Positions 34,411 to 64,000 of a stretch of DNA of 64,000 nucleotides are shown piece after piece (positions within the stretch are counted from its first letter, which is position 1; every line of letters starts with the position of its first letter). Origin of the DNA: Coriobacteriales bacterium (lineage in GTDB: Bacteria > Actinomycetota > Coriobacteriia > Coriobacteriales > UMGS124). The notes under the pieces are model-generated. The model searched no databases, had not been told where the DNA came from, and was given only the letters and a program-made list of their open reading frames with translations. Made by a program: the position numbers and the translations under genes. The stretch spans positions 1,121-65,120 of the forward strand of contig JAFWFL010000126.1 in assembly GCA_017515595.1 (NCBI GenBank), given 5' to 3'.

Positions 34411-34413
34411 ACC

Positions 34414-35949: not shown

Positions 35950-35960
35950 CGGAGACGAGT

Positions 35961-36818
35961 ATGGGCACGTTTGCATTGTTCAAGAAGAAAGGTCTTCCTG
36001 ACCCAGCATTTGATCTTTCGCTCGAGCAGATTCAGGACCTGCTTTATGACATGATGTGTAAATTTTCGACGTTTTGTGAAGTACATGGATTGAGATACTG
36101 CCTTTGCGGAGGAACCCTTTTGGGAGCCGTGCGCCATCAGGGTTTTATTCCCTGGGATGACGATATTGACATTATGATGCCAAGGCCTGACTATATGAAG
36201 ATGCATGAGCTTTTGCTCGAGTCTCCCTTGAGTGATACTCGACAACTCATAAGTATCGAAGCTCAAAACGCAACAATACCATATGCTAAAATCATTGATA
36301 CTCGTTACGGCGTATATGATCCTTTAGATGTACGAGATAACTACTTGTGGATAGACATATTCCCCATTGACGGAGTTCCGGCGGACAAAGAGGAATGTGC
36401 TCAGTATCTTGCCGAGGCACACAAGCTTAAGAAGAGATTGCTTTTGGCGAGCGCGCCAATGGGAACAGGTTTTACCTTAGCACGTGCAATCCTTAAGTTG
36501 CCTGCGGTTTTGTATGAGCATATCAAGCTTGCGTTTGCAGGCAGCGATTATTACGGACAAGCCATCTCGAGCCGGGCCCAGAGCATTGATTTTGACACTT
36601 CAGAGTATGTGGCTTCAGTGGCTTGGACATGCGGTCCACAAGAACGCATGAAAAAGAGCGATTTGTTAATGAGCACAACTATGCGATTTAGAGACAGGCA
36701 CTTTGCGGCAGGGGGTAATTGGCAGGCTTACCTTGAGGCAATGTATGGCGATTATATGACTGTTCCGCGCGCTGAAGACCGCGTAAACCACGCGTTTCGC
36801 TGTTTCTCTTTAGTTTAA
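35961..36818 (+). CDS. licD: LicD family phosphocholine transferase
   Basis: LRYCLCGGTLLGAVRHQGFIPWDDDIDIMMPRPDY is the LicD nucleotidyltransferase-fold motif. ATG 35961 lies 6 nt after GGAG (the track ORF starts at 35934). Confidence 0.88.
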   Translation: MGTFALFKKKGLPDPAFDLSLEQIQDLLYDMMCKFSTFCEVHGLRYCLCGGTLLGAVRHQGFIPWDDDIDIMMPRPDYMKMHELLLESPLSDTRQLISIEAQNATIPYAKIIDTRYGVYDPLDVRDNYLWIDIFPIDGVPADKEECAQYLAEAHKLKKRLLLASAPMGTGFTLARAILKLPAVLYEHIKLAFAGSDYYGQAISSRAQSIDFDTSEYVASVAWTCGPQERMKKSDLLMSTTMRFRDRHFAAGGNWQAYLEAMYGDYMTVPRAEDRVNHAFRCFSLV

Positions 36819-45635: not shown

Positions 45636-46571
45636 ATGCGAAAGGGGTCTGGTAACGTGCTGGAGTATTCCCGCGAGTTTTTGGTACTGGCTTCATGCAT
45701 GAATTTTACTGCCGCAGCCAAACGGTTGAATATGACACAACCGGGGTTAAGCAGACATATTGCTCAGCTTGAGAAAGAACTGGGATTTACACTCGTCACA
45801 AGGTCAACACCGCTTTCTTTAACACCGGCAGGCAAGCGCTATCTCGAACTGATCTCACCGCTTATTGAAGAGTTTGATGATGCAGTAGCGCAATGTAGAG
45901 ATGTAGCCAAAGCAAAAGGAAAACCCATACGTATTCATACCACCCCACTCGACGGTTATGTCACACGTTTTATTATGAGCGGTGTGGCTGCTGTTAAACG
46001 AGAGTATCCAGGTATGGATATCCGTCTTGTGAGGACCGAGCATACCTCTCCACTCAAAGCAGTACTTGATGGTTTGGTTGATGTGTCACCTATTTATTAT
46101 GTGCCTCAAAACCTACCTCAAGATTTTGTATGTGAGCTGTTGTATGAAGAGCCATTCCATATTTGGCTTCATCGAGATAACCCGCTCGCTTATAAAGAAC
46201 CTTTTTACTTTGCAGATCTTGCCGAGACAACCCTTATGAACGCCATTGATCCGCAATATGAAGACTGGAATATTGGCGTAAGAAAAGTATGCGAGCGCTA
46301 TGGGTTTAAGCCAAAATATATCCTCAAAGATATTGATGGATTGACTGACTTTATCTTTAGCCTACAGCCTGATGAACTCATCATGACATCTTCTGCATTC
46401 GCTGCACAGAGCGCCATGAATCAAATTCTTATTGACCGAGTGCCTAATGACGCCGAACCGCATGTATACCCGTCGTATTTGGTATACAGAAAACCCAGAT
46501 CCCAAAGTGTACTCGAGACCTTTTTACAGGGTTGCAGAGTCGCGGTTATTCAGGAATTTGGCCATAAATAG
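45636..46571 (+). CDS. LysR family transcriptional regulator
   Basis: HTH FTAAAKRLNMTQPGLSRHIAQLEKELG plus a substrate-binding domain. GTG 45657 (9 nt after AAAGGGG) is an equally plausible start. Confidence 0.88.
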   Translation: MRKGSGNVLEYSREFLVLASCMNFTAAAKRLNMTQPGLSRHIAQLEKELGFTLVTRSTPLSLTPAGKRYLELISPLIEEFDDAVAQCRDVAKAKGKPIRIHTTPLDGYVTRFIMSGVAAVKREYPGMDIRLVRTEHTSPLKAVLDGLVDVSPIYYVPQNLPQDFVCELLYEEPFHIWLHRDNPLAYKEPFYFADLAETTLMNAIDPQYEDWNIGVRKVCERYGFKPKYILKDIDGLTDFIFSLQPDELIMTSSAFAAQSAMNQILIDRVPNDAEPHVYPSYLVYRKPRSQSVLETFLQGCRVAVIQEFGHK

Positions 46572-46689
46572 TATGGATTACAAGCAGCTATAACAATTCT
46601 GTATAACTCTGCAAACGGAACGACATCAATATATGACGTATTTTTATTTGCGTCACCGCCCATACGGTCTTATGGTTTGTTTTGTCAGA

Positions 46690-46720
46690 ACTTGCACGCA
46701 CATTGCGCTGTGTTGCAAGT
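46690..46720. promoter_or_regulatory. Candidate LysR-type operator upstream of the flavoprotein gene
   Basis: Inverted repeat ACTTGCA (46690-46696) N17 TGCAAGT (46714-46720), 34-64 nt upstream of ATG 46754. Confidence 0.3.
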
Positions 46721-46753
46721 GTTTACATTACCCCCCCTGAGAGGAAAACTGCC

Positions 46754-48379
46754 ATGGAGATGACCCGTCGTAATTTTGTTGCCGCTGCTGCAGGTACCGC
46801 CGCTGTTGCCGGTTTGAGCGTTCCTTTTGCGAATGCTGCAAATGTTGCATATGAGACAGACGGTCCTGGCGAGACCGAGCCCATTCCGCCGGTAGATGAG
46901 CCCGCTGCTTATGATTATGAGGCTGACTTTGTTGTTATTGGTTCCGGTGGAGGCATGAGCGGTGCACTGCGCGCTCTTGACCTTGGTGCAAGCGCTATAG
47001 TTATTGAGAAAATGCCTGTTGTTGGCGGAGAAACCCAAGAGGCTTGCGTATTTGCATTTGTGAGCGGAACCCGTTGCCAGACTGAAGCCGGTCTTCCTGA
47101 CGTTACCGAGACTCTCCGCGAGAAGTTTTACGCAAGCGCTCCTTTTGGCGCCAAGCAGCGTCCTTTTATTGACAATGTTATGGCCGGCTCTAAGCAGCTT
47201 GTTGAGTGGCTTGAGGGTTTGGGCCTGCCGTTTGAGCCTGGTTACTGCGTTGGCGGTGAAGCTGTTTATGCCGTTTGCCCTGAGGGTTCGGCTGTTAACA
47301 AGATGAACCTTGAGAGCATGACATATCTCACCAAGTTCCTTGCGTCAAAGATTGAGGAGAAGGGTGGCCAGTTCCTCCTTTCAACCGAGGCTGAGGCTCT
47401 TATTATGGCTGACGGCGCCGTTAAGGGCGTTATGTGCACTGCTGAAGATGATTCTACTATTTATGTTAAGGCAAACAAGGGAGTCCTTATTGCCACCAAC
47501 GGCATTCAGGCCAACCGTGCCATGCTTGCCAAATATGCTCCTGACGCACTCCGTTGCAAGGTCAACGTCGCCGGCGGCTTTACCGACGGCAAGGGCATCC
47601 GCATGGGCTTTGGCGCCGGCGCCGAGTTTGGCGGATATGACCAGTTTGGTGTATTCGACGGTGGTCTTGACAGCATGCCGTGGGAAAGCCTTCTCTATGC
47701 TCCTGTTATCCAGGTTTGCCGCCAGCCGTGGCTGGGCATCGACGTTCATGGCGACCGTTACTCGTATGGTACCACCGGACTCTCGGGCTTTACCGCACAG
47801 GGTAAACTGCTCAAGGGCTTACCCGGCAATCATGGCTATGTAATCTTTGATGATGACTGGTATGAGCGCTCGCTTGGTTTTGACCAGCAAATGTGCCGCA
47901 TGCCGCTTGACCCGGCTGTCTTTGGTGACGAGCTCTATCGCGTTCCCGAGATTTATTGGGACTACAAGGGCGGAGTAGAAACCGCAATGGAGGAAGGTCT
48001 CATTGAGAGCGCCGACACCATTGAAGAGCTTGCCGAGAAGCTCGGTCTTGACCCGGAGGTCCTGGTTAAGGCCGTTGATAATTACAATGCTATTGTAGAA
48101 GCCGGAGAAGATCCTGATGGTCCCTACGCTGAGCATCCCGAGTATCTGTTCCCCATTGTTAAAGCTCCGTTCCATGGTGCAAAGCAGGGCGGTATGCTTT
48201 ATGCAACGTCAGCAGGTCTTGCCATTAATGAGAACATCCAGGTTCTCGACAAAATGGGCAAGCCCATCCCCGGCCTCTACTGCGGTGGCGCCGCTGCAGC
48301 CCGTGACATCCAGGTATGCGGTTCCTGCTGCTTCTCCAACACAAGCGCTTTCCTCGCAGCCACTCATGCTCTTTCATAA
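46754..48379 (+). CDS. TAT-exported FAD-dependent oxidoreductase (fumarate reductase / FAD_binding_2 family)
   Basis: Twin-arginine signal MEMTRRNFVAAAAGTAAVAGLSVPFANA. Dinucleotide fold DFVVIGSGGGMSGALRA. ATG 46754 after GAGAGGAAAA (the track ORF starts at 46682). Confidence 0.88.
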   Translation: MEMTRRNFVAAAAGTAAVAGLSVPFANAANVAYETDGPGETEPIPPVDEPAAYDYEADFVVIGSGGGMSGALRALDLGASAIVIEKMPVVGGETQEACVFAFVSGTRCQTEAGLPDVTETLREKFYASAPFGAKQRPFIDNVMAGSKQLVEWLEGLGLPFEPGYCVGGEAVYAVCPEGSAVNKMNLESMTYLTKFLASKIEEKGGQFLLSTEAEALIMADGAVKGVMCTAEDDSTIYVKANKGVLIATNGIQANRAMLAKYAPDALRCKVNVAGGFTDGKGIRMGFGAGAEFGGYDQFGVFDGGLDSMPWESLLYAPVIQVCRQPWLGIDVHGDRYSYGTTGLSGFTAQGKLLKGLPGNHGYVIFDDDWYERSLGFDQQMCRMPLDPAVFGDELYRVPEIYWDYKGGVETAMEEGLIESADTIEELAEKLGLDPEVLVKAVDNYNAIVEAGEDPDGPYAEHPEYLFPIVKAPFHGAKQGGMLYATSAGLAINENIQVLDKMGKPIPGLYCGGAAAARDIQVCGSCCFSNTSAFLAATHALS

Positions 48380-48468: not shown

Positions 48469-48594
48469 GGAATTATAAATGATGTTATGTCTGTTCAATC
48501 ATCAAAAATGAACGACATTATCAGTATATATGTGATACAGTATGCGACAGTGTATAAACAATATAGTATTTTATCTATTTACAGGAGATCTGAC

Positions 48595-48867
48595 ATGGCA
48601 CAGACAACGCTGAGCGTACGTATGGATGTAGAAATGAAAAAGAGCTTTGAATCATTTTGCGAAGATGTTGGCATGAATGTTTCGACAGCTATTAATATGT
48701 TTGTTAAAGCAGTTTTAAGAGAGCATAAACTTCCGTTCGAAGTTGTTTCTTACAATACTGATCCCTTTTATTCTCAGGCAAACTATCAGAGACTTCTTGC
48801 CGCTGCAGAACGTATGGACTTAGGCAAAGGCCGGGAACATGCCATGAACGAGGTAGCCGATGCGTAA
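48595..48867 (+). CDS. RelB/DinJ-family antitoxin
   Basis: Ribbon-helix-helix start MAQTTLSVRMDVEMKKSFESFCEDVGMNVSTAINMFVKAV. ATG 48595 lies 7 nt after AGGAG. Overlaps the toxin gene by 8 nt. Confidence 0.85.
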   Translation: MAQTTLSVRMDVEMKKSFESFCEDVGMNVSTAINMFVKAVLREHKLPFEVVSYNTDPFYSQANYQRLLAAAERMDLGKGREHAMNEVADA

Positions 48868-49123
48868 ATTATGGGATGATGATGCCTGGGAGGATTACCT
48901 TTACTGGCAAGTGCAAGACAAAAAGACCTTACGTCGCATTAATGCACTACTTAAGGATATTGAACGAAACGGCTATGATGGTATAGGCAAACCTGAACCA
49001 TTAAAAGGAGCACTATCTGGCTGGTGGAGCAGGCGAATAGATGATGCAAATCGTATTGTATACAGAATACGAGAGGGCAATATCGAAATCATCCAGTGCG
49101 GTTCACATTACAGAGATAAGTAA
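48860..49123 (+). CDS. yoeB: YoeB/Txe-family toxin (ribosome-dependent mRNA interferase)
   Basis: KLWDDDAWEDYLYWQVQDKKTLRRINALLKDIERN ... IGKPEPLKGALSGWWSRRID...RIVYRI ... C-terminal HY, which is the YoeB pattern. Confidence 0.9.
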   Translation: MRKLWDDDAWEDYLYWQVQDKKTLRRINALLKDIERNGYDGIGKPEPLKGALSGWWSRRIDDANRIVYRIREGNIEIIQCGSHYRDK

Positions 49124-49241: not shown

Positions 49242-49670
49242 TTACTCCTCGATACCAACCATAACATCGGTTGACTTAACAAATGCAAGAGCGTCTGCAC
49301 CCTCAACAAGACCAAGGTCATCAATAGCCTCGTTGGTGATAGAACCGCTTACACGAAGACCGCAAGCGGTCTCAAGGGTAACGCGACCGTTAACGGCACC
49401 CTTCTCTACCTTTACAATCTTGCCGGGGAACTGATTACGAGCGCTGATAGCAAGCTTCTCTGCAGAAGCAGCAAACATAACATTGCTTGCCTTTACGATA
49501 GCAACGGCAGCCACACCTTCTGCAAGACCAAGCTCACGGATGGCTTCCATGGTGATGTCAGCCTTAATGGTTTTGCCGCAAGAGGTCTCAATGGATACAA
49601 CACCATTTACGGCGCCTTCCTTAACAGAGGTCACAACACCGGCGAACTGGTTACGGGCACTAATCTTCAT
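49242..49670 (-). CDS. mop: Molybdate-binding Mop protein (two tandem TOBE domains)
   Basis: Two copies of ISARNQF.G.V..V..GAVNG.V..ET.CG....... ITNEAI..LGL.EG..A...VK.. , the molbindin/TOBE pattern. Confidence 0.88.
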   Translation of the reverse strand: MKISARNQFAGVVTSVKEGAVNGVVSIETSCGKTIKADITMEAIRELGLAEGVAAVAIVKASNVMFAASAEKLAISARNQFPGKIVKVEKGAVNGRVTLETACGLRVSGSITNEAIDDLGLVEGADALAFVKSTDVMVGIEE

Positions 49671-51264: not shown

Positions 51265-52008
51265 TTATCCTCTGAAGGTGAACTGCTCTAATGCCTGGGC
51301 TATTGATCTGCTCATTTCGCACGAGAAACCCGAGTTCCATTTGCGGTCGCAGAAGGCTTTGATAGACTCGGGACCGCGGCTTGCGTCAACAGAACCAATC
51401 TTTTTGGCACATGCTGCGCGTACATCTTCTACCGGAAGATCCCGGTACTCATCTTCAAAGACCACTACATCCAAATCAAAGCGCGGCGGCTTTTTGCGAT
51501 CCTTTTGCTGCTGCGTGGGATACCCCAGAACAAGAATTGTAGCGGGAACAACATATTTGGGCAAGTTAAGGATGGATCTCTGCTCGTCATAATGCTCCAT
51601 GAAGTCGCCAATGTAACATGAGCCAATGCCCAGTGACTCGGCTGCTGTTACGGCGTTTTGCGCGGCGATGAGAGCATCCTGCATAGCAAGTACCATGTCT
51701 CCGGGACCGGGATCGCGCGGTTCACAGCCTGCCGCTTCAAACACACGCCACCACCTGCGCACATCTGCGCAGAATGCCAAAACCAGCTGTGCTTCGCCAA
51801 TAAACGGCTGGTTGTCGCAGCTTTTGATCAAAGCTTCAATCTTTGCACGGTCACGAACCACAATGATTGAATACATCTGCTGATTACCGGCAGTTGGAGC
51901 CTGGCATGCTGCTTCTAAGATGACTTGCTCTTCTTCAGGTGTAATCTCTTCATCTGTATAAGCCCTCACAGACTTACGGGAAAACAATGCTTCAATGGTA
52001 GCATTCAT
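51265..52008 (-). CDS. Nitroreductase family protein
   Basis: LFSRKSVRAY..., PTAGNQQ and the rest of the nitroreductase fold are present. ATG 52008 lies 9 nt after AAGGAG. A perfect minus-strand TATAAT at 52038-52043 would place the track start (52035) outside the transcript. Confidence 0.85.
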   Translation of the reverse strand: MNATIEALFSRKSVRAYTDEEITPEEEQVILEAACQAPTAGNQQMYSIIVVRDRAKIEALIKSCDNQPFIGEAQLVLAFCADVRRWWRVFEAAGCEPRDPGPGDMVLAMQDALIAAQNAVTAAESLGIGSCYIGDFMEHYDEQRSILNLPKYVVPATILVLGYPTQQQKDRKKPPRFDLDVVVFEDEYRDLPVEDVRAACAKKIGSVDASRGPESIKAFCDRKWNSGFSCEMSRSIAQALEQFTFRG

Positions 52009-52116
52009 AGCACACGGCTCCTTTCTCGGCTTCATATATTATATGCCATGATATAGAATCAAAAGATTAAAAATCGCCAACAGACAGATGAAATTGCATG
52101 AGATATCGATGATCAC

Positions 52117-52149
52117 CAAAAAGCCCCCTGTGGGTATCCACAGGGGGCT
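52117..52149 (-). terminator. Rho-independent terminator after the reductase gene
   Basis: Perfect 12-bp stem agccccctgtgg / ccacagggggct with loop gtat. On the minus strand it is followed by TTTTTGG. Confidence 0.88.
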
Positions 52150-52194
52150 CCAAAATGTGTCAGAGAACCGTCCCTTGACACAGACACTCTGATC

Positions 52195-54666
52195 TTAGAA
52201 ACCGGCGGGTATCTCGGAGAGAGCGGGGCTTATCTCTGCATAGCCGTAGGTATCGCCTACATAAGCTGCTGCATATGCACCTGCAAGACGGCCGCCTGTT
52301 TGATACCAGCCCTGGGCTACGCCGCCAAAGCCCACATAGTGACGATGCGGGTTCTGGATAACGCCCATAGAGTCAAGACCAATGGCGTAGAGACCGTCAA
52401 TTGGCGTCTCATGGTCTTCCTTAAGTACCCTGAGCTGGGCGTCAACATCGAGACCAGCGGCAGAACCAAAGGCAGCGTTGAAGATCTGGATTGCGTAGAA
52501 CGGCGGGGTTGCGATCTTAACGAGCATATCAGGATTCTTGCCAAATTCCTCGTCAACGCCCTTCTCGACCATAGCGTTATAGGCATCAATTGTTGCTTCT
52601 ACCTGAGCGGGATCAAGACCAATTTGCTCGGCGAGATCAGCGATTGTATCTGCCTTCCAGGCCATGCCCTCAGCTACCGTGAGATCAAGACCCTCATAGA
52701 CCTCGGGAACAGGCATGTCCTTGGGAATATTGCCCTGGGTATTGTAACCGTCCCAAGTGGTCCAGTTAAAGCCTGTCTCAACAATGGGGGCAAGAACTTC
52801 TTCAGAGACAATGACAAAGTAGCTCATACCACCATTCCAGTGTGCGAACGAGTCGATATCGATATCCTGCGAGAATGACTCATACTGAGACTCGTCCATA
52901 AAGCGTTTGCAGTCATGGGCAATTGCGACAGCCATGCCGTCATATGCGCATCCGAGCGGAATGTTGTTAAGGGTCCAGACGTTTTTGCGTCCTGTACGGT
53001 TTTGCAGCACGTTATCGTACTCATTAATAGGATAGTATGAAAGCCAGTGATCCAAACCGCAGTGCATAAAGATGGGGCTCATGTCAGCGTTAAAGGTGCC
53101 GGCTCCAATATTGAGAGCCGCCTCAATCATAAGACCGGTGTCGCAACCGGTGCCAACGGTCTTATACAAACCGCGGAAGCGCTCGTTGGGCAACGTCTGC
53201 ATAAGGGCATAGTTCTTGGAGAAGCCGCCGGTACCCATAATGATTGCCTTGGTCTTGATATCATATTCCTTGCCGGTTACCACATTGCGGGCTTTGACAC
53301 CCACCACCTTGTCGCCATCGAGAATAAAGTCAAAGGCCTCGGTCTCAAGCATAACGTCAGCGCCCTGCGAAACAGCCTCATCAATGAGCTGGTTAAGGTA
53401 CCTGTTTACATACTTACGACGGTCTTCATAGGTACCGGGATCAGCGCGGGAGGTACAGAGCGTGTTGAACGAACCACGGCCACCGGTCAAAACGGAGCCT
53501 GCGCCGTTGGCTACCGTACCGTAGCGCCAACCATGGCTGTAGAGCCAGTCCACGGTGAGACCGGTTTCATCAACCATAATATCGACACAGTCCTGACGTG
53601 CCAGACATTGGTCATCCTCAGTAACAAACCTCATCCAACGACGACGAAGCTCTTCTTTGTCGAGATAATCTTCACCGTTGTTGTATTCCTTCATATACTC
53701 GGGCGGGTTAACGGCAAATGCTTCATGGGTAAGGGCAGACTTACCGCCAATCTTGCCGGCGCGGTCAATAGCAAGCACGCTTACGAGCTTCTTGCCGTTG
53801 CGCTTCTGAATCTCTTCGCAAGCATTGAGCAGGGCAATGACACCGCCGTTGCCCAAACCGATTACGAGAATATCCTTCTCAAGTTCCTCAACCTCGCCTG
53901 CCTGGGTCTTAAGATCAACACGTGCATCAAACTTACCGGCGGCAGCGGCGTCAACGCCGTTCGCCTCAAATGCCTGCATAACACAATGACGTACAGCGTC
54001 ACGTACGCCTGCGCAGGTTTGGGTTGCACCCGTTACGGCGTCAATATTGATCGATTGATTTTCAATAACACGCGGGAAGAATCTCTCTTTGGCGCTCTCG
54101 AGAATAACCTCAGTATCGCCGTGAGCAAAACGGTCATCAGGAACTTCAATCTTCAAAATGGCATCTTCGTTCACGGTAACAGTAACGGGAAGGTCAATAA
54201 TCCTCCAGTAACCGCTCTTAGCAGATGCGGAGTAAACACCCGGCTTCATCTTAAGACGAGGCAGCTCTTCACCGTACATAGCAATACCATATGCGGAGCT
54301 AGCAGCCGCCAGGAAAGCAGAAGAAGTAATGGTAGCACCGGCAACTGCGTCAACATCAACACTTCCGGTCTCAAGAACAGCCGCTGCGAGTTTCTCAAGA
54401 GCCTTGCCGCCCTTCTCAGGTGTCTCGGCAAAACCGTCATAGGCAATATCGGTAACCTTACCGTCAGCTACGGTAAGAGAAACCGTGACATCACCCGCAT
54501 ATCCCTTAGCTGACGCCTCGCCTATGCCAGGGCCAGCGGCTGGCTCGTCGGCCAGTGCAGTTGCTATCTGGACAGAGTAAAGCGCACTGGCTCCGATAAG
54601 CCCAAGCGATGCCCCTTCCACAAATCCGCGCCTTGTTACAATTGCAGAGTTACGGGTGTTCTCCAT
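52195..54666 (-). CDS. TAT-exported flavoprotein reductase: two FMN_bind modules + FAD_binding_2 (fumarate/urocanate reductase-like) domain
   Basis: Twin-arginine signal VTRRGFVEGASLGLIGASAL...ALA. Two FMN_bind-type modules end in VDAVAGATITSS (54331-54351) and IDAVTGATQTCA (54028-54045). Then DILVIGLGNGGV and a long FAD_binding_2-like domain. ATG follows AAAGGAG. Confidence 0.9.
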   Translation of the reverse strand: MENTRNSAIVTRRGFVEGASLGLIGASALYSVQIATALADEPAAGPGIGEASAKGYAGDVTVSLTVADGKVTDIAYDGFAETPEKGGKALEKLAAAVLETGSVDVDAVAGATITSSAFLAAASSAYGIAMYGEELPRLKMKPGVYSASAKSGYWRIIDLPVTVTVNEDAILKIEVPDDRFAHGDTEVILESAKERFFPRVIENQSINIDAVTGATQTCAGVRDAVRHCVMQAFEANGVDAAAAGKFDARVDLKTQAGEVEELEKDILVIGLGNGGVIALLNACEEIQKRNGKKLVSVLAIDRAGKIGGKSALTHEAFAVNPPEYMKEYNNGEDYLDKEELRRRWMRFVTEDDQCLARQDCVDIMVDETGLTVDWLYSHGWRYGTVANGAGSVLTGGRGSFNTLCTSRADPGTYEDRRKYVNRYLNQLIDEAVSQGADVMLETEAFDFILDGDKVVGVKARNVVTGKEYDIKTKAIIMGTGGFSKNYALMQTLPNERFRGLYKTVGTGCDTGLMIEAALNIGAGTFNADMSPIFMHCGLDHWLSYYPINEYDNVLQNRTGRKNVWTLNNIPLGCAYDGMAVAIAHDCKRFMDESQYESFSQDIDIDSFAHWNGGMSYFVIVSEEVLAPIVETGFNWTTWDGYNTQGNIPKDMPVPEVYEGLDLTVAEGMAWKADTIADLAEQIGLDPAQVEATIDAYNAMVEKGVDEEFGKNPDMLVKIATPPFYAIQIFNAAFGSAAGLDVDAQLRVLKEDHETPIDGLYAIGLDSMGVIQNPHRHYVGFGGVAQGWYQTGGRLAGAYAAAYVGDTYGYAEISPALSEIPAGF

Positions 54667-54783
54667 GCTGTCTCCTTTGCTATGTGACCTTTATACGTAG
54701 ATAAGGCCGGTGGATAATAGACTGTGCAGACTTGTGCAGTACATGCGCGTCGGCACTAAGCATCGTGTGCTCTGGAGATAATT

Positions 54784-54812
54784 ATTATACAAACAAGCCG
54801 GCCATGCTTCAA
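54784..54812 (-). promoter_or_regulatory. Predicted sigma-70-type promoter of the reductase gene
   Basis: The minus strand reads TTGAAG (54812-54807), a 17-nt spacer, then TATAAT (54789-54784). The implied 5' UTR is about 110 nt. Confidence 0.6.
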
Positions 54813-54853
54813 CCATACAGGTTGAAGTTGGTATATCAACCTGTATGGTTGAT
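54808..54853. promoter_or_regulatory. Two 17-bp palindromic operators (TCAACC-N5-GGTTGA), the proximal one overlapping the -35
   Basis: TCAACCATACAGGTTGA at 54809-54825 and its exact reverse complement TCAACCTGTATGGTTGA at 54836-54852. Centres are 27 bp apart, at about -40 and -67 relative to the predicted start site. Confidence 0.6.
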
Positions 54854-54920
54854 ACAGTCGAGAGGTGATTTTGCGAAAATGATAATAAAATAGACGATCT
54901 GAAGCATCACTTCCAAATCA

Positions 54921-56375
54921 TCAACACCCAGCTTGCGCCTGGGTTTGCTCGACAAGCTTTATAAGCTCTTGCTGATCGTGGACGCCAAGCTTTCGGTACA
55001 CATGGATAATGTGTGTATGGGCAGTGCTTTGGGAAACCGTTAGCTCCTCGGCGATGGCAGACTTGTTCTTTCCGCGTGCCAGCAGAAGTAGTACAGCAGT
55101 TTCGCGTTCGGTAAGACTATACGTCTGAGCAAGCTGGGAAGAGACTGCTGTTATCGTGAGAGGCTCTGCTTTGGGTTGAGGCTTAACTGACATCGTGTCT
55201 CTGAGAGGTTCGAAGAACGTTTTGCCGGAGAATACCCAGAGCAGCGTCACGATGAGCAACATGACAAGGGTAGCAATGAGCATCGTGATATCATGGCCGT
55301 TGGAGTCTATCCACGCCAACGCTGTTGATGAAAGAATTGTCCCTATGAGTGCGCCGCCATTCTTTGCCGCCACCAGCGCTCCGAATCCCAGCGATGGGCT
55401 CAAGAGCAAGGAAGATGCGAGCTCAACGACAAGTATGAGCATCATGATCTCGAACAGCTTGTTACCGAAGCACAACGTGAAAAAGGCTATCCTGCCGAGT
55501 TGATCGATGCTGATAAGCTGCATGAAGAGACCGGCAGCTGTTATAGGGAGGATGGTTTTGCAAAGCCCGATGGTGCTTACCGAACCCCTGGTCAGGAATA
55601 TCAGGAGCAGAGCAATGACAGCAACAAGATTCGCTGCATGTCTGATGTCATATCCGGCAAACTCAGGGGAGGTGACATAACCAATTGTTGTTGCACTGAT
55701 GTGCACGATGTCATACAGAACGCATGTCAAGACAATCCTACCGAGAATACCAGGGATAGGATGGACGCCAGCAGTTGACTGCCGTTGCGGCTGACCAACT
55801 TCGGCAGGTAGGGATAACCGCTCGATGTCAAAGCATCCAATGCGTTTTTGGGCAGTGAAAAATAAGGCAGCATTACCAAGGAACAACAGGGTCGTCTCAA
55901 AAAAGAAAGCTTCTGCCGGGATGAACATATTCATCACCAAGCCGCAGATCGAGGTAATCAGGATGGATAGCAGGATGTTACAGTAGACGCCATTCTTATC
56001 GAGCCCCGAGAAATACGAACACCATCTAACCTCTATGTAACCGCCGCCCAAGCCCACAAAGATCATACCAAGAACCGAGTACACCCTCTGGTCCAGGAGC
56101 ATGCCGAGTACAGCACAGAATGATCCGAGCAAACATGCGAAGAGCGTAATGCCACGCGCGAACTCTGCCTGCTCAATCGTCCTAATATGTTTCCAGATGA
56201 CGATCGATAAAAATCCCGCGAGGGCAAGTGCCCCATAGAGGATCAGCAACGTGATTCCTGCTGGCTCAGCAACATAGCGCGCGTACATTAAGTGTTGAAG
56301 TATCCATACGCGGTATAGCCCATAGCCCATGAGCTCCCATCGAAATGAGTGTTTCAATGAGCTGAGATTTGTCAT
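54921..56375 (-). CDS. Polytopic membrane LuxR-family (GerE HTH) transcriptional regulator
   Basis: About 400 aa of hydrophobic helices, then LTERETAVLLLLARGKNKSAIAEELTVSQSTAHTHIIHVYRKLGV (GerE/LuxR HTH). Confidence 0.88.
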   Translation of the reverse strand: MTNLSSLKHSFRWELMGYGLYRVWILQHLMYARYVAEPAGITLLILYGALALAGFLSIVIWKHIRTIEQAEFARGITLFACLLGSFCAVLGMLLDQRVYSVLGMIFVGLGGGYIEVRWCSYFSGLDKNGVYCNILLSILITSICGLVMNMFIPAEAFFFETTLLFLGNAALFFTAQKRIGCFDIERLSLPAEVGQPQRQSTAGVHPIPGILGRIVLTCVLYDIVHISATTIGYVTSPEFAGYDIRHAANLVAVIALLLIFLTRGSVSTIGLCKTILPITAAGLFMQLISIDQLGRIAFFTLCFGNKLFEIMMLILVVELASSLLLSPSLGFGALVAAKNGGALIGTILSSTALAWIDSNGHDITMLIATLVMLLIVTLLWVFSGKTFFEPLRDTMSVKPQPKAEPLTITAVSSQLAQTYSLTERETAVLLLLARGKNKSAIAEELTVSQSTAHTHIIHVYRKLGVHDQQELIKLVEQTQAQAGC

Positions 56376-56708
56376 AGGCAGCCTTTCAAGGGAATGCCGG
56401 ATGCGAATGCCTGTCTATGTATTTGCGATGCCAGAGCCGCAAGCGCTTTCGACGCCCGCTCCTGTCATCGTCCAAACATGAGCCATACTAACCTCCGTCT
56501 ATCACAAACCTCCCTAGTTTACATATCATACCTGAGGGGACAGGACGCTATGCAATCCCATCTTTATCCATGTCCATTCTAGACATTAAAACGCCATAAT
56601 GCAACATTCTTATCAAACATAGGATGCAGATGACGGTTACCAGGTGTTGCGCTGAAGTTGAGTCCAACCTGTAATTGGGATAGCCGTTTGTGGGAGTGCG
56701 TTCTGCCT

Positions 56709-56779
56709 CGAACTTGACCGTTTGCACACCCCGTTGGAACATTCTTGGCCATTTGCACACCCTGCTGGCACGAACTTGA
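56709..56779. repeat. Direct repeats in the long non-coding stretch upstream of luxR
   Basis: TTTGCACACCCCGTTGG (56721-56737) and TTTGCACACCCTGCTGG (56752-56768) lie 31 bp apart and are bracketed by CGAACTTGA at 56709-56717 and 56771-56779. Confidence 0.5.
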
Positions 56780-56992
56780 GGAAATGCACATTCTAGAGGA
56801 GTAAACAACGAGGATTTCTCCGACCAGAAATCTTATTACCTGGTGTTTTAGTAAGCGATGGAGAAGCCCTGGTGAATGGTTACGCGCCTCCCACCGCTGC
56901 GGGCTGCAAGGTTTGGACTATCTTTGACTCGGACTTCTCGGCACAAATGGATGTTTCTTCGCCATTGTCTCAGTTTATATCATGTACGTATA

Positions 56993-57112
56993 TGCAAGTT
57001 ATGACGGGCGCTAGCATGACGACAGGCAAAATTCGAAGAATTTCTCGGCAAAAGGCGAGGTATTTTAAACCTTTTGATGTTTGATCATGCTAGCACCCGT
57101 CATAACTTGCAC
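56993..57112 (-). mobile_element. MITE-like palindromic repeat element, copy B (inverted relative to copy A)
   Basis: TGCAAGTTATGACGGGCGCTAGCATGA ... TCATGCTAGCACCCGTCATAACTTGCA gives 27-bp terminal inverted repeats with one mismatch. Its reverse complement aligns along the full length of copy A. Confidence 0.8.
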
Positions 57113-57164
57113 TCATGTGTAAGGCTATGCGACATCGGCCTGACATGTGGCCGAGAAACCCTTG

Positions 57165-58610: not shown

Positions 58611-60224
58611 TTACCACCACACCAGAAGAACAACATCATCGGGGTCCAAAACACCGGTCTCAGGGTCAAAATGGAGTTCGAGTCCGTTTAGCACATGTGT
58701 CCCGGATACCCGCGCGCCGTTCTCGTCCAAATAAATAATATCGCCTGATTCGAGACTCGCGAACTGCGAAGTCATGAGTTCGCCATTATAGTTGTAACAA
58801 TACCAAAGGCCGTCAGGTCCCAGGATCATTTTCCCGCGTACAAGGCGGGCAAATTCATCATAATACGAGATATACCCGTCAAATACAACCTGGGTATCCA
58901 CGGCGAGGGCAGCGGTTTCGTAATCTGCGTAGTATGTGTCTTCACCACGGTTAAAGGGGCCAAACATGAGCTCGCCGTACTCGTTATAATACGACGTCTG
59001 CTCCCGGTCATGAATAAACGTATCAGTAACCATAGCGCCGGTTATCTCGTCAAAATGCCGCCAGGCTTCATCAACCACTACATCGCCGTGAATGAGCGCA
59101 CCGTCAAGTATATAAAAGGTATTGCCCTTATATTCATACCAGCCGTCTCCGGCTTCCTGAATCTCGGCTTCGCTTGGCACCTGTACCGTCACAAACGGTG
59201 CATCATAAACGGTAAGATATGCCTGGTCTGCACTGTAATCACCAGGCGCAGCATAAAGCGCTTTCCAATCATAGTGAAGCTTACTTCCCTTGGTAAGGAA
59301 CGAGTAATCACCGCGCAAGAAGTAATCATGGTGCACAAGGCCCTCAAACCCCTGATCTGGGGTAGGGTCATCCCAGGTGACGTCCACATGGTACCAGCGG
59401 CCGTCAATACACACCATATTCCAGCTATGGTTCATAGTCTCGCTTGCAACCATGCAGGCGTCAATACCAACGCGCTTGAGCAAAAGCTGGTAGGCACGGC
59501 TGTACCCGTCGCATACCCCGGTATGCTCAACCAAAACACCGTACACATTAAACGGTGTGCGCGATGCAAAGTCTGACCCTAAAAACGTTGCTTCATTCGC
59601 ATTGATCAAAAGCGATTCATCAGCCTTATCATCCTGAGATAATCCGTCCGAGAAACCCATGATATCTTGATCAGATACTCCGGCAGCAAGTGCGACTTCT
59701 ATGTTATAGTGAGTTGTCCGTACCAAATAATCATGAAGGCACTGCGCCTTTTGAACATCAGTCATGCTATCATCAACCCAGCTGAGCGCCTGTGTAACCG
59801 CAGCCTCAACAGCATCGCGATATGCAGGAATTTCATCCACATCCATGGCGTAGGTAAACACTATGGAGTCAACAATACCGCCGTAAGAAGTTGTTGACAA
59901 CTTGGCCGGGTAGTCAAAATAAAAATACTGCGGATCAAGCGATATGCGTTCACGGGCAGCGCTGATATCTTCAAATGTCAGCCTGAGACCACCCATGTTG
60001 TTTATCTCTACCACAAGCTCGTCAAAAGCTGTACGCAACAGTTCCTCTGCGTTATAACCATAATAGTATGAAGTACCGTTTTCTATTACCACGCCGGCGC
60101 CGCCCTGCGTGCTGTCTGCTCCATGAGCTGTTTGCGTAAATGAACTCAGCGCGCAGATACAGGCAAGAACAATAACCGCTATAACGTACCCGGTAAAACG
60201 GGTTTTGCGTAGAAGACTCCTCAT
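58611..60224 (-). CDS. Secreted transglutaminase-like protein with degenerate C-terminal aromatic repeats
   Basis: Signal peptide VIAVIVLACICALSSFTQTAHG. Core GVCDGYSRAY / NHSWNMV / HVDVTWDD. C-terminal Y/W/G-rich ~20-aa repeats (WYEYKGNTFYILDG..., LWYCYNYNGELMT...). The ATG overlaps the upstream stop (ATGA). Confidence 0.85.
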   Translation of the reverse strand: MRSLLRKTRFTGYVIAVIVLACICALSSFTQTAHGADSTQGGAGVVIENGTSYYYGYNAEELLRTAFDELVVEINNMGGLRLTFEDISAARERISLDPQYFYFDYPAKLSTTSYGGIVDSIVFTYAMDVDEIPAYRDAVEAAVTQALSWVDDSMTDVQKAQCLHDYLVRTTHYNIEVALAAGVSDQDIMGFSDGLSQDDKADESLLINANEATFLGSDFASRTPFNVYGVLVEHTGVCDGYSRAYQLLLKRVGIDACMVASETMNHSWNMVCIDGRWYHVDVTWDDPTPDQGFEGLVHHDYFLRGDYSFLTKGSKLHYDWKALYAAPGDYSADQAYLTVYDAPFVTVQVPSEAEIQEAGDGWYEYKGNTFYILDGALIHGDVVVDEAWRHFDEITGAMVTDTFIHDREQTSYYNEYGELMFGPFNRGEDTYYADYETAALAVDTQVVFDGYISYYDEFARLVRGKMILGPDGLWYCYNYNGELMTSQFASLESGDIIYLDENGARVSGTHVLNGLELHFDPETGVLDPDDVVLLVWW

Positions 60225-63200
60225 GAATCCTCTCCTCGTGCTTTACGCGCCGCCTGCTCCAAAAGCCATGACGGAACCTCACTTATATGATCCTGCTGAG
60301 CATTTCGGCCAGTTTCCTGCGACAGCCGGTTTTCTTCCCGGTTAGAACGCCTGCGCCGGGAAGTGCGCCGTGACTCTTGTTCCTCAGGGGTTTCTCCTTC
60401 ATCGGTTAGTACATAGCTTCTCCGCCTGTCGCGGCCTGAAGACTCGGTACTTCCATACAGATCTTCCTGCTCAACCTGTGTCCGTCTTCTGCGGGACGTC
60501 CGTTCGCTTTGTATATGCGCTTCTTCAGAACCATACAGGTCTCGTGCATTGCGCCTTGAAGGTCTCATCTGAGGTTCATCATTTGTTGTCTGGTCGCTGC
60601 TCAGTTGTTTTGCAGGCGCATCATCATAATCAGGGGTAGTATAAGCACTAACCCGCCTGCGGCGTGCAGGACGCTCTTCCATAGCGTCAGAGTCAGTTTC
60701 TGCATACCCGCTACGACGGCTTACCGAGCGGTCACGGTATGAGGTATCCTGTGCGGCGCGCTCCGGTGATTTGCGAGCAGACGGCCGGCGATTCGCATAC
60801 TGTGAATCTATATCTTCAAGCGGGTCTTTTTCGCGCTGCTCTTCAAGCGTGCGGTCCCACTCTGACCTGACCGTCCTCTTTGGCCTCTCGCGGGATGTAC
60901 GTCTGCGTGCAGATGTTGGGGTTGCGTCTTCTTCAAGCTCCCAAGGGTAGGGCTCTCTTGCTTCTTTTGGTACCTGACGCTTGCGCTCTGTGGTGGTATT
61001 TGTCTGAACAACCGGTATTTGCGCAGTAGCTCCGCGTTTAACAAGAAAATCAGGAGTATTGGCCGGAGCGGGCTCGGGCTCGGCATCAACAAGCCACGGA
61101 TATGGCTTAAGTTTAATCTCCGGCTCGGGCTCAGGCCTTGGAGTCAGGGCAATCTCGGTAGCGCTCATCGCAGTAGCTGCAACCATGCCGGCACGCACAC
61201 TCTTGCGATCTTCTCGGGATTCTTCTTCATAAAGTGCGTGTACAACCCGGTAGCTTTCTTCAAAGGTGTCGAGAAGCTCTGCCATTGCAGAAAAACGGCC
61301 TGTCTGCGCCCAAACGGCACGGCTTCCCAAAACAGCAAAGCGCTGCCAGGCCATAAGAGCCGACACGTCTATTACCTGGGGGGTAGATGCGACCATATCT
61401 ATGGCTTCAACTGCGTTTTCATCGCAGCCAAGCACAAGGAGCACCTCGTCTGCTTTAACTCCGCACAGCTCCTGTGGTGTTGCGATAAGCCTTGTAAGAC
61501 GCGCTTCGAGCTGCTCGGCATCAATTCCTAATTCCTGCTCGTTCCAATGGTTACGCACGGCACGACGCAGAGCCTTCACCACACTCGTAAAGGGCGAAAC
61601 CACACATACTGCCTGGTTTTGATCATTGAGCCCCGGCACCACACGTGTGTTATACACATCAAACGCGCGATCCAAAAGACGCAGAACAGCATCTGTCTGC
61701 TCATTCACTGCATGATTCTTACCGCCATGTTCTACTCCCCCGCAATCTATCCAGCATGAGGTAGGCAGCATGTACTCACGGTCATCTTCGCGATCCGGAG
61801 CTTCGCTTATTAATCTCTGTGCATATCCCAATGTATTGGCAATTCCAAACATGGGTTCAGACGTATCTTTTTGGATAACAAGGGCTATGCCCGTGTGTGT
61901 GCTTCCAATATGGGAACTATAGCGGGAAGCGGTTGCCGCGGCTTCAAGCGCTGTTGTTACGCTGCCTGCACGCACAGTATCAAACTCCTGGGCAAGCGCC
62001 TGATACAAATCATGGAGAGCGGCATCGGCAATGCCGGGAACAAAGTGGTCGCCAATCACAACCGCACTCTTAGCCAGGCTCATGCTCCCCGCAATTTCCT
62101 GGGGCTCAACAAGATGAGCCTGATCTACAACAAGAACGCCCAAACTACGCTGAGGTATACCCTCAAGCAACATAGGCGCCGCATCAACACTTGTAATAAG
62201 CGCAGGTGACAGCACAAAGAGCGACTCCAAAAGAACGGGAAGAACTTCTTGCAAAGCGCCTGAGGGTACACGTCCCTCCCAGCAAGATGCGAGCATACGG
62301 TAATTTCGCTCAAGACCGGTATCATGTATAAAGGTCTTATGCACTTGCAGCGCACGGTAAAACAACTCTTCGCGGGCATTATCAAACGCTGCTGTAATCC
62401 ACGGACATGAGTGCTGCGAAGCTTCATTGTGAATCAAATCATCATAAAAATCATCATCGGCAGCAATAAGTGATGGTTTAACCGCACTTGCTGCCCGCAA
62501 GCGCGCATTGAGATTTTTCATATGCTTTTGGAGCATCTCAAGCTTGGCGGCAACCTGAGCACGCTGGGCACCTATCTGGGTAAGAACCTCTTTGGCGCCT
62601 TCGAGCTTTGCGCGGGCTCCATCCAAGTCATAACGCCTCGACAAAAGCTCATCAGCAATCTGTTCTTTACGCTCTTTCGAGAGACGCTTTTGGGTTTGCT
62701 CCTCGGTTTCCAAATCTGAGATCTCGCGCACAAGCCCGTCAAGGTGCTTTGAAGCTTCAGTGGCGTCTGCCTGCGCCTGCTGCAAACGCTTATCATACTC
62801 ATCAAGCTGCTTTTTATTCTTTTGGTACTCAGCACCCTTTTGGGCTACGGTAGCCTCCATTGATTCTTTGCATTCAAGCGCCTGCGCAACGTTGTCAAGC
62901 GTCTCACGAAGCTGCTCCACTTTGTTGAGCTGCTCCAAAAAGCGCGCTTTGGCTTCTTCCCAACGCAGGTATCCGCCGTTTTTGCGAAGTGTTCCGTTAT
63001 CACCGTCTGCGATGGTTCGCAACAGTTTTGCGGCATTGAGCAGATCTTCTTCGCCGGTAAGTTGCAAAGCCGCAAGTCCCCATGCCCCCTGGGGCATGCG
63101 CAGGGCCTGAGAAGCTTCGCGGGTAAAATAAACGTCCGCAGCATTGGTGCGTACCATATCAAATACACCGGTACGCGAATGTGCGGCATCAGCAAACTGA

Positions 63201-64000
63201 GCTCCTGTAATTTCTGCGACCATCTGCCTTGTAGCCAATGCCCTAGCCGGGGCTTCTATAACTGCCGAGAAACCCTTGAGTTCAGGCGGAAGCTCCAGGT
63301 ACACCTGACGCTCCGCTGGACCGGACAGAGCTTTTGATGCATGCTGCAACATGCACGTTGCGGGGTCAAGGTTCACCATTGCCCGGGCACGTTCAACCAC
63401 GGTTGCTGCAATAATACCTTTTATTAAAGAAACAGGATCAGTACCTTGTGCAGCCTGGATTGCATACAAAGGCACGCTGTCGCGCTTCTTTTGTTCTGTG
63501 GTTTGCGAAGACTGCGCCTCAGAAGTCTCTTTTGAATCGCCTTCCTTTTGCGCTGCTTCATTGTTTGCCTGTAAAAGTCCTGCCACCGAAATATTTGTTG
63601 CAAGATGCTGCATCAGATGCGCAACATTCTTAGACGGCCACACACCCAAAGGCACACTCTTGGGATGCAGCCACAAACGCATTGCCGGAATCGACATATC
63701 AAGCTCGACTTTCTCGGCATCTGCGGTACTTACAATTGCTTCAAGATAACGCCGTACTAAAGGGGGGATTGGCTTTGTAGCTGCTTTTGAAAGCTCCTCC
63801 ACGTGCTGGCTCGCACAGACATGCGGCTCGGTATCCCAAAGTGTCTGCCTGCTCTGCATCTGGCGAACCACACAGTCGCCTTTTATTGCACTTACGAGCG
63901 CGGTTTTCTCGAGCACTCCAAAAGCATGCTCAAGTATATTGGAGCAGATATCATAAGAAAGCTGCTGGGTTAGCGCTCGCAACGCAGCATCATTTTGTGA
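60221..64000 (-). CDS. Large SF1 (Upf1-like AAA_11/AAA_12) helicase-like protein with coiled-coil insertion and R/S/E-rich tail; N-terminus runs off the window
   Basis: The frame stays open from 63982 to the window edge (no stop in 63983-64000). Helicase-like blocks are recognisable but the catalytic residues are replaced (see finding). Coiled coil at about 62483-62980. Disordered tail at about 60224-61140. Confidence 0.8.
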   Translation of the reverse strand, partial: SQNDAALRALTQQLSYDICSNILEHAFGVLEKTALVSAIKGDCVVRQMQSRQTLWDTEPHVCASQHVEELSKAATKPIPPLVRRYLEAIVSTADAEKVELDMSIPAMRLWLHPKSVPLGVWPSKNVAHLMQHLATNISVAGLLQANNEAAQKEGDSKETSEAQSSQTTEQKKRDSVPLYAIQAAQGTDPVSLIKGIIAATVVERARAMVNLDPATCMLQHASKALSGPAERQVYLELPPELKGFSAVIEAPARALATRQMVAEITGAQFADAAHSRTGVFDMVRTNAADVYFTREASQALRMPQGAWGLAALQLTGEEDLLNAAKLLRTIADGDNGTLRKNGGYLRWEEAKARFLEQLNKVEQLRETLDNVAQALECKESMEATVAQKGAEYQKNKKQLDEYDKRLQQAQADATEASKHLDGLVREISDLETEEQTQKRLSKERKEQIADELLSRRYDLDGARAKLEGAKEVLTQIGAQRAQVAAKLEMLQKHMKNLNARLRAASAVKPSLIAADDDFYDDLIHNEASQHSCPWITAAFDNAREELFYRALQVHKTFIHDTGLERNYRMLASCWEGRVPSGALQEVLPVLLESLFVLSPALITSVDAAPMLLEGIPQRSLGVLVVDQAHLVEPQEIAGSMSLAKSAVVIGDHFVPGIADAALHDLYQALAQEFDTVRAGSVTTALEAAATASRYSSHIGSTHTGIALVIQKDTSEPMFGIANTLGYAQRLISEAPDREDDREYMLPTSCWIDCGGVEHGGKNHAVNEQTDAVLRLLDRAFDVYNTRVVPGLNDQNQAVCVVSPFTSVVKALRRAVRNHWNEQELGIDAEQLEARLTRLIATPQELCGVKADEVLLVLGCDENAVEAIDMVASTPQVIDVSALMAWQRFAVLGSRAVWAQTGRFSAMAELLDTFEESYRVVHALYEEESREDRKSVRAGMVAATAMSATEIALTPRPEPEPEIKLKPYPWLVDAEPEPAPANTPDFLVKRGATAQIPVVQTNTTTERKRQVPKEAREPYPWELEEDATPTSARRRTSRERPKRTVRSEWDRTLEEQREKDPLEDIDSQYANRRPSARKSPERAAQDTSYRDRSVSRRSGYAETDSDAMEERPARRRRVSAYTTPDYDDAPAKQLSSDQTTNDEPQMRPSRRNARDLYGSEEAHIQSERTSRRRRTQVEQEDLYGSTESSGRDRRRSYVLTDEGETPEEQESRRTSRRRRSNREENRLSQETGRNAQQDHISEVPSWLLEQAARKARGEDS

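Follow-up and report, generated by a model that had tools for sequence, protein, structure and literature searches.

A Coriobacteriia regulator–reductase locus pairing a membrane-spanning LuxR-type protein with a predicted secreted tandem-FMN_bind flavoprotein

Organization of the locus

We analyzed a stretch of 64,000 nucleotides of contig JAFWFL010000126.1 from a Coriobacteriales bacterium (hereafter the window), in which two neighboring genes of the reverse strand encode an 823-residue flavoprotein reductase (positions 52195–54666) and, upstream of it, a 484-residue membrane-spanning LuxR-type regulator (54921–56375). Both open reading frames (ORFs) and the two-gene layout are exactly those delineated in an initial annotation of this DNA. 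We consider it likely that the two genes form a substrate-inducible reductase unit of a Coriobacteriia (Eggerthellaceae-like) chromosome, in which the regulator would control a secreted reductase relaying electrons through three flavins.

The nearest homologues were found in a Slackia sp. metagenome-assembled genome (MAG) and in Arabiibacter, Raoultibacter and Adlercreutzia. We assign the window to a chromosome because its first ~22 kb are filled by the dcw cell-division/peptidoglycan cluster, which is complete (positions 1–22624; mraZ, rsmH, a penicillin-binding protein gene, murE, mraY, murD, ftsW, murG, murC, murB, ftsQ, ftsZ, sepF and divIVA) and followed by pyrG. The reductase protein occurs in identical copies on five metagenome contigs, and several metagenome assemblies contain the same contig again. 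The ORFs in the middle of the window were annotated by Pfam; the window holds no eet-like genes and an Rfam scan of it returned no match.

Architecture of the reductase

The reductase is made up of a twin-arginine translocation (Tat) signal peptide, two FMN_bind modules and a FAD_binding_2 catalytic region, according to Pfam (two FMN_bind stretches, E = 2.8e-23; FAD_binding_2, PF00890, E = 5.4e-28) and to an AlphaFold2 (AF2) model with a predicted local distance difference test score (pLDDT) of 92 and a predicted template-modeling score (pTM) of 0.90. Residues 1–40 are the sole disordered part of the model (pLDDT below 50). These profile calls, together with inspection of the N-terminus, agree with the domain composition proposed in the initial annotation.

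By inspection, the N-terminus (MENTRNSAIVTRRGFVEG...) reads as a twin-arginine signal peptide spanning residues 1–39 (54550–54666, reverse strand), with a T11-R-R-G-F-V-E motif, a hydrophobic core and an A37-L38-A39 stretch abutting D40 (A-L-A followed by D-E-P). The Pfam TAT_signal model did not score on the reductase, although it does on some homologues. Twin-arginine motifs are present in the homologues, many of which also have a lipobox cysteine; the window reductase has none. A tatA gene lies near the reductase orthologue of one metagenomic locus (L086).

Pfam and family profiles delimit FMN_bind module 1 at residues 43–134 (54265–54540, reverse strand) and module 2 at residues 138–240 (53947–54255, reverse strand). 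The two modules are 34% identical to each other, and both retain the motif that ends such domains: VDAVAGAT in module 1, where the predicted flavinylation site is Thr112 (codon 54331–54333) within D-A-V-A-G-A-T, and IDAVTGAT in module 2, where Thr215 (codon 54022–54024) closes a canonical D-A-V-T-G-A-T. Across 91 homologues, Thr112 and Gly110 never vary, and the conservation of Ala111 is at least 90%; Thr215 is invariant in a 34-sequence alignment and at least 90% conserved in the set of 91. The modifiable threonines on which the proposal of two flavinylatable modules was based are thus kept across the family.

A family profile run against a collection with each species represented by a single genome yielded a set of the best 80 loci; a scan of the genome collection with the single protein had given no confirmed relative, and the alignment-based repeat did. 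Judged with the module profiles, both FMN_bind modules are present in 105 of the 119 best database matches and at 59 of the 80 best species loci. The tandem arrangement extends over Coriobacteriia, Oscillospiraceae, Lachnospiraceae, Erysipelotrichales, Bellilinea (Chloroflexi) and one spirochaete; by higher groups, the family covers Coriobacteriia, Clostridia, Erysipelotrichales, Chloroflexi and Spirochaetes. Module 1 looks like a distal add-on, since the closer single-module relatives (loci L028, L047, L052 and L056) keep a module of the module-2 type. An apbE gene directly follows tandem-FMN_bind homologues, 45–49% identical to the window reductase, at five loci (L015–L018 and L088). Our literature searches on proteins with two FMN-binding domains found no relevant paper; a survey of flavinylated proteins counted 3070 fumarate-reductase-like proteins fused to FMN_bind and 2081 extracytosolic proteins that carry at least two FMN_bind domains, with fumarate-reductase-like domains present in some of the clusters (Meheust et al. 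2021, PMC8238504).

Locus L088 (5141–11564; metagenomic, probably Chloroflexi-like) carries two tandem-FMN_bind paralogues of 840 and 832 residues arranged head to tail. There, apbE follows and a 923-residue MalT-like GerE regulator precedes, giving a compact reductase-plus-flavin-transferase cassette.

Catalytic domain and active site

The FAD_binding_2 region spans residues 259–810 (52237–53892, reverse strand) and comprises a Rossmann G-L-G-N-G-G motif and a divergent capping domain at residues ~507–680, as defined by Pfam, alignments and Foldseek. The G-L-G-N-G-G stretch aligns with G-S-G-G-A-G of flavocytochrome c3 (Fcc3) and is modeled with pLDDT above 90, indicating an intact dinucleotide-binding motif. 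In searches by sequence and by fold, the catalytic domain falls into the superfamily of flavocytochrome c3, the urocanate reductase UrdA and 3-ketosteroid dehydrogenases (KstD), at ~20% identity. Foldseek matched UrdA and Fcc3 structures with E values of 1e-28 to 2e-31 (Fcc3, 2e-31) and also KstD, the best template-modeling scores (TM-scores) being those to 3-ketosteroid dehydrogenases (target-normalized TM-score, TMt, 0.63–0.66). No NCBIfam equivalog model came near its cutoff; the best, for the vinylphenol reductase VprA, reached 147 bits where its cutoff is 600, and the models for urocanate and fumarate reductases fell far below theirs. The NCBIfam KstD models scored 86–97 bits against cutoffs near 790, which is why we do not file the reductase as a KstD. 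A search of PDB sequences with the capping domain alone (residues 507–680) gave chance matches only (best E = 0.36), so the proton donor cannot be assigned by homology.

Comparison with Fcc3 shows which catalytic features have been kept. The G-x-R-F-x-N-E motif of Fcc3 is retained, with both Arg588 and Glu592 invariant. The position of the Fcc3 catalytic acid Arg402 (equivalent to UrdA Arg411) is occupied by Glu596, and by a gap, Glu, Ile or Ser across the family. Fcc3 His504 corresponds to Phe733, and this position is Phe in 57 and Tyr in 34 of the 91 family members and never His. The segment of Fcc3 Arg545 carries an insertion of four to five residues that contains Tyr777, and Arg775 is found in 49 of the 91 sequences only. 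This active site does not belong to the fumarate/urocanate type, since both the His/Arg carboxylate clamp and the catalytic Arg are absent. The designation of a fumarate/urocanate-reductase-like FAD domain in the initial annotation therefore holds for the fold and fails for the catalytic residues of those enzymes.

Within the same region, the alignments reveal a Tyr777-x-x-x-Gly781-Gly782 motif (Tyr codon 52336–52338, reverse strand), of which Tyr777 and Gly782 never vary and Gly781 is present in 89 of the 91 sequences. A phmmer alignment with the ketosteroid dehydrogenase AcmB (7P18) places Tyr777 on Tyr536 and Gly781 on Gly540, the pair that polarizes the substrate carbonyl in 3-ketosteroid dehydrogenases (Tyr487/Gly491 in KstD1 numbering). 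AcmB Tyr536 is one of the tyrosines that stabilize the 3-ketosteroid enolate intermediate (PMC9736390). No counterparts could be assigned to the KstD catalytic base (AcmB Tyr363) or to Tyr118, because sequence alignment fails across the capping domain. Adjoining the Arg402-equivalent position, Tyr595 is conserved in most of the clade at least 50% identical to the window reductase, and only in that clade; as a speculation, it may be the proton donor. Little et al. (bioRxiv 2022.12.26.521950) reported that both arginines are missing from three of four cinnamate-reductase clades, in which a conserved Tyr takes the corresponding place.

The safest statement about the substrate is that it would be an alkene conjugated to a carbonyl, either an enoate or an enone, bound by a hydrogen-bond pair of Tyr and a backbone amide in place of an Arg/His carboxylate clamp; neither fumarate nor urocanate is a likely substrate. 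We agree with the initial annotation that the substrate itself cannot be read from the sequence. Among steroid-reducing enzymes, we weighed OsrA, OsrB and the delta6-3-ketosteroid reductases as possible relatives and discarded them, as they belong to a different family of Fe-S/old yellow enzyme (OYE)-type flavoenzymes.

The membrane-spanning regulator

The regulator (54921–56375, reverse strand) combines a membrane-embedded sensor domain with a C-terminal LuxR/GerE helix-turn-helix (HTH) domain, as delineated by its ORF, by Pfam and by an AF2 model built from 34 homologues (pLDDT 89, pTM 0.82). In the model, the sensor domain (residues ~13–395; 55191–56339) comprises 12 transmembrane (TM) helices between residues 13 and 381, arranged as six plus six around a disordered central loop (residues 180–206); a crude hydropathy scan gave nine peaks. 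The HTH domain (residues ~408–483; 54927–55154) is modeled with four helices and is recognized by Pfam as GerE (PF00196) at residues 420–474 (E = 2.8e-14). The description of this protein as ~400 residues of membrane helices fused to a GerE HTH is borne out by these results.

The sensor domain is predicted to adopt the fold of major facilitator superfamily (MFS) transporters. Foldseek searches of the PDB returned MFS transporters as all of the top 50 matches (query-normalized TM-score, TMq, 0.41–0.56; E down to 1e-5), including MelB (8fq9, E = 1e-5, TMq 0.53), SLC15A4, GLUT3 and NorA, and one distant homologue of the regulator is labeled 'MFS family permease' by JGI. Pfam found nothing in the first ~400 residues and no MFS family at E = 0.01, and for this reason the fold assignment stems from the model alone. 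With an MFS fold, the N- and C-termini would both be cytoplasmic, in keeping with an HTH that acts inside the cell. Neither PMC9734109 nor the other literature searched mentions an MFS fold for these LuxR sensors. The best database homologue of the sensor domain is 40% identical.

Conservation of the regulator–reductase pairing

The pairing is conserved in other genomes. A polytopic GerE protein is encoded directly upstream of the reductase, on the same strand, in 7/7 Coriobacteriia orthologue loci with an upstream flank (L006–L012, comprising a Slackia sp. MAG, Adlercreutzia mucosicola, Raoultibacter massiliensis and four MAGs). The reductase orthologues at these loci are 51–62% identical to the window protein, and the upstream LuxR proteins are full-length homologues of the window regulator whose membrane domains are 25–38% identical to it. 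Unrelated TM-LuxR proteins of Eggerthella lenta share less than 20% identity with the window regulator. The same LuxR–reductase arrangement recurs at two further metagenomic orthologue loci (L086 and L087).

Among the homologues in Clostridia and other phyla, a polytopic LuxR never adjoins the reductase gene, and many of these homologues have a LysR regulator directly upstream. This distribution agrees with the finding of Little et al. (bioRxiv 2022.12.26.521950) that different lineages use different regulators. As candidate conserved partners of the unit, we also followed an NfsA-like nitroreductase, a CarboxypepD_reg protein and a TOBE protein, and rejected all three because they are absent from the orthologous loci.

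Locus L087 (1–18457) holds an orthologue 58–60% identical to the window reductase in an island with more LuxR plus FAD_binding_2 pairs, an ISL3 transposase, a fragment of an MmeI-type restriction enzyme and genes for type IV secretion system (T4SS) coupling proteins. This context hints that such units move on conjugative elements.

Promoter region and gene ends

A sigma-70-like promoter, identified by its match to the consensus (TTGAAG-17-TATAAT, 10 of 12 positions), lies ahead of the reductase gene at 54784–54812 (reverse strand), and an AAGGAG ribosome-binding site stands 5 nt ahead of the ATG. Two exact copies of a 15-nt palindromic box, CAACCATACAGGTTG, occur next to this promoter in opposite orientation: one at 54837–54851, centered near −67 of the predicted promoter, and one at 54810–54824, which in the promoter scan overlaps the −35 element and is centered near −40. 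With up to two mismatches allowed, the 64-kb window contains no further copy, and two copies arose in 0 of 100 shuffles. A site that overlaps the −35 element is the usual place for a class-II activator. From their sequence and position, we infer that the two boxes are the halves of a candidate operator.

Downstream of the reductase gene, a 14-bp GC-rich stem followed by a U tract forms a strong predicted intrinsic terminator (52115–52151, reverse strand; folding free energy, dG, −30.8 kcal/mol; z = −6.0; 0/200 shuffles as stable). The terminator-like hairpin that overlaps the LuxR stop codon is weak (54893–54922, reverse strand; dG −12.1 kcal/mol; z = −2.1). With a promoter-like site, a strong reductase terminator and a weak hairpin behind the LuxR gene, monocistronic transcription of the reductase is plausible rather than proven, a more guarded position than that of the initial annotation, which had assigned the gene its own promoter and terminator.

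Directly beyond the reductase terminator lies a gene for an NfsA-like oxygen-insensitive NAD(P)H nitroreductase (51265–52035, reverse strand). On the other side of the unit, the intergenic region upstream of the LuxR gene (56376–57164) is unusually long, at ~790 bp, without a convincing ORF or Rfam match.

Other features of the window

About 4 kb away, a second regulator–reductase unit occupies positions 45636–48379 on the forward strand. A LysR-type regulator gene (45636–46571) stands directly upstream of the gene for a 565-residue protein with a twin-arginine signal (MEMTRRNFVAAAAG...), a FAD_binding_2 domain and no FMN_bind, distant from the main reductase (58 bits). A RelB-like antitoxin and a YoeB-like toxin (PF04221, PF06769) are encoded at 48487–49123 on the forward strand with overlapping stop and start codons. 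They are followed by a gene of the reverse strand (49242–49670) for a 142-residue protein that consists of a pair of Mop-like, molybdate-binding TOBE domains. Candidatus Rubneribacter avistercoris encodes a close homologue of this protein in the vicinity of a reductase paralogue (L049, E = 5.5e-51).

Large surface proteins with choline-binding repeats, some with transglutaminase-like or BspA-type leucine-rich repeat (LRR) domains, are encoded at 23372–29857, 31885–36818, 40410–42365 and 58611–63982. These genes adjoin a lic-type choline-utilization cluster (a choline kinase/nucleotidyltransferase fusion, a BCCT transporter and LicD), which suggests that this Coriobacteriia-like organism decorates its cell wall with choline.

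Proposed mechanism and alternative interpretations

We propose that the 12-TM LuxR protein is embedded in the membrane, its HTH facing the cytoplasm, and, by analogy with characterized family members, would detect a small molecule through its MFS-fold domain. As family members and the conserved synteny suggest, it would then activate the adjacent reductase promoter, probably via the two CAACCATACAGGTTG boxes. The reductase would fold with FAD in the cytoplasm and, given its signal, be exported by the Tat pathway. An ApbE-type transferase encoded elsewhere in the genome would attach FMN to Thr215 and probably to Thr112, a step proposed because of the motif conservation and the adjacency of apbE in relatives. 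Electrons from a membrane donor would pass from FMN1 to FMN2 and on to FAD, which would reduce a carbonyl-conjugated C=C bond of the inducing metabolite.

Several observations weigh against this scheme. Induction, flavinylation, the electron donor and the substrate are all inferred, and so is the electron path from FMN1 over FMN2 to FAD. A search of the orthologous promoters for the operator boxes turned up no shared sequence. The annotated genes of the 64-kb window include no ApbE, cytochrome or quinol-dehydrogenase gene, in line with what had been noted at the outset, and no membrane electron donor. The mature reductase has no lipobox or other evident anchor that would tether it to the membrane of a monoderm cell. 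The alignment around Fcc3 Arg402 is weak (4.4 bits). Lastly, motif 1 carries Ala at position 4 of the flavinylation consensus D-x-x-[S/T]-G-A-[S/T] (PMC12052999), where Ser or Thr is expected, so FMN1 may not be attached.

This last point leads to an alternative in which the enzyme holds two flavins: only module 2 would be flavinylated, and module 1 would be a flavin-free docking or scaffold domain contacting the membrane partner. Both the deviant motif and the retention of a module matching the module-2 profile in the closer single-module relatives fit this view. Against it, Thr112 and Gly110 are strictly conserved, with Ala111 nearly so, and position 4 of motif 1 varies across the family, being Ser/Thr in many members and Ala or Cys in others, which suggests a tolerant position rather than a dead site; we regard the two-flavin enzyme as unlikely. 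A different question is the direction of catalysis. The alignment of Tyr777 and Gly781 with the KstD motif, the TM-scores to 3-ketosteroid dehydrogenases and the reversibility of KstD chemistry (PMC9736390) could be taken to indicate a secreted KstD-like dehydrogenase delivering metabolite-derived electrons to the membrane chain instead of acting as a terminal reductase. We judge this highly improbable: all characterized secreted FMN_bind plus FAD_binding_2 enzymes are reductases (Little et al.; PMC8238504), the cinnamate reductases of Eggerthellaceae and Erysipelotrichaceae also have Tyr for Arg at the equivalent position, and the host lineage consists of anaerobes known for their reductase arsenals.

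The reductase could also be an unrecognized orthologue of a characterized urocanate, fumarate, itaconate or cinnamate reductase. One 52%-identical homologue bears the UniRef label 'Urocanate reductase' and others are called 'fumarate reductase flavoprotein subunit' by JGI, and our comparison with the enzymes of Little et al. (CirA-D, CrdC/D and IrdA) was made by description and not by sequence. Such an identity is nevertheless very unlikely in view of the NCBIfam scores, the ~20% identity to UrdA and Fcc3, the missing catalytic His and Arg of fumarate and urocanate reductases, and the fact that none of the source organisms of the characterized enzymes (E. lenta, H. filiformis and S. wadsworthensis) is among the best 80 species loci; no characterized orthologue, which the initial annotation had named as a ground for refutation, was found. 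Finally, the Tyr-x-x-x-Gly tandem-FMN_bind clade might constitute an uncharacterized class of extracytoplasmic respiratory ene-reductases acting on non-carboxylate enones by reverse KstD-like chemistry, under the control of an MFS-fold LuxR 'transceptor' switch. Its enones may be steroid, bile-acid or flavonoid-type alpha,beta-unsaturated ketones. We rate this extension as doubtful and retain the substrate-inducible three-flavin reductase unit as our preferred interpretation.

Significance

The novelty implied by the initial annotation is upheld only in part. In E. lenta, 64 reductase genes neighbor transmembrane regulators of this kind, and acceptors induce the reductases (Little et al., bioRxiv 2022.12.26.521950). 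The two-FMN_bind architecture dominates the family, and multi-FMN_bind proteins were catalogued in 2021 (PMC8238504). The locus is a well-formed but ordinary example of the known substrate-induced respiratory reductase units of Eggerthellaceae and leaves the current picture of flavin-based anaerobic respiration unchanged.

Four aspects are modestly new: that the sensor is predicted to have an MFS fold, how large and how widely distributed the tandem-FMN_bind clade is, the occasional linkage of this clade to apbE, and its KstD-like Tyr-Gly signature. The clade is large and distributed over several phyla, we identified no characterized member, and its active-site signature resembles that of ketosteroid dehydrogenases and not that of fumarate/urocanate reductases. 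Gut Coriobacteriia encode tens to hundreds of such regulator–reductase pairs, most without a known substrate, and several characterized pairs inactivate drugs or transform dietary or host metabolites. The locus described here is a clean, probably monocistronic example with a cognate sensor, which could serve as a handle for the substrate through induction screens.

Comparison with known systems

E. lenta encodes 83 transmembrane LuxR proteins, members of a 10–12-TM LuxR family concentrated in Coriobacteriia, of which DadR, HcdR and CadR have been shown genetically to activate adjacent reductase genes in response to the enzyme substrates (Dong et al. 2022, PMC9734109). Together with the induction data of Little et al., these findings support the association between polytopic LuxR proteins and substrate-inducible Eggerthellaceae reductases that had been made in the initial annotation. 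By its architecture, the window regulator falls into the 10–12-TM LuxR family; it shares with DadR, HcdR and CadR the C-terminal GerE HTH, 12 predicted N-terminal TM helices, an adjoining reductase gene and a fast-diverging sensor. It differs in that its neighbor is a flavin reductase, whereas theirs is a molybdopterin catechol dehydroxylase, and its sensor domain is not close to that of any characterized member.

UrdA, CirA-D, CrdC/D and IrdA resemble the window reductase in having a signal peptide, a FAD_binding_2 domain and a paired local regulator, and clades 2–4 of Little et al. also have a non-arginine active site with a Tyr near alignment position 6. The window reductase is set apart from these enzymes by its two FMN_bind modules and by a capping domain without a sequence match to solved structures. 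In the residue numbering of Little et al. (bioRxiv 2022.12.26.521950), CirD R716 corresponds to UrdA R560, an unverified hint that CirD may also have an extended N-terminus. The Shewanella UrdA (6T85–6T88) and Fcc3 (1QJD, 1D4C) structures share the fold of the FAD-binding and capping domains at ~20% identity, and UrdA also receives its electrons through a covalently flavinylated FMN_bind domain; UrdA, however, has one such domain and Fcc3 a tetrahaem domain, in contrast to the two FMN_bind modules of the window protein.

The likeness to AcmB (7P18) and KstD1 (4C3X) concerns the fold and the correspondence of AcmB Tyr536-x-x-x-Gly540 with Tyr777-x-x-x-Gly781. The matched KstD chains (508–561 residues) are 17–21% identical to the window reductase and, unlike it, have no FMN_bind. 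KstD enzymes are cytoplasmic or membrane-associated dehydrogenases that are not known to carry a Tat signal.

In Listeria monocytogenes, PplA carries two FMN_bind domains, FrdA combines one FMN_bind with FAD, and FmnB is the ApbE-type enzyme (PMC8238504). The window reductase would likewise be part of an extracytosolic chain of ApbE-attached FMN that ends at a FAD_binding_2 reductase in a Gram-positive cell, but its additional FMN_bind is fused to the reductase and would be exported with a Tat signal, whereas the Listeria counterpart is a separate lipoprotein. Among the multi-flavinylated proteins (PMC8238504), which are also extracytosolic, contain more than one FMN_bind and in some clusters include fumarate-reductase-like domains, 'wires' of 3–13 flavins have been described, compared with which the window reductase would represent a minimal form, with two modules on the catalytic subunit.

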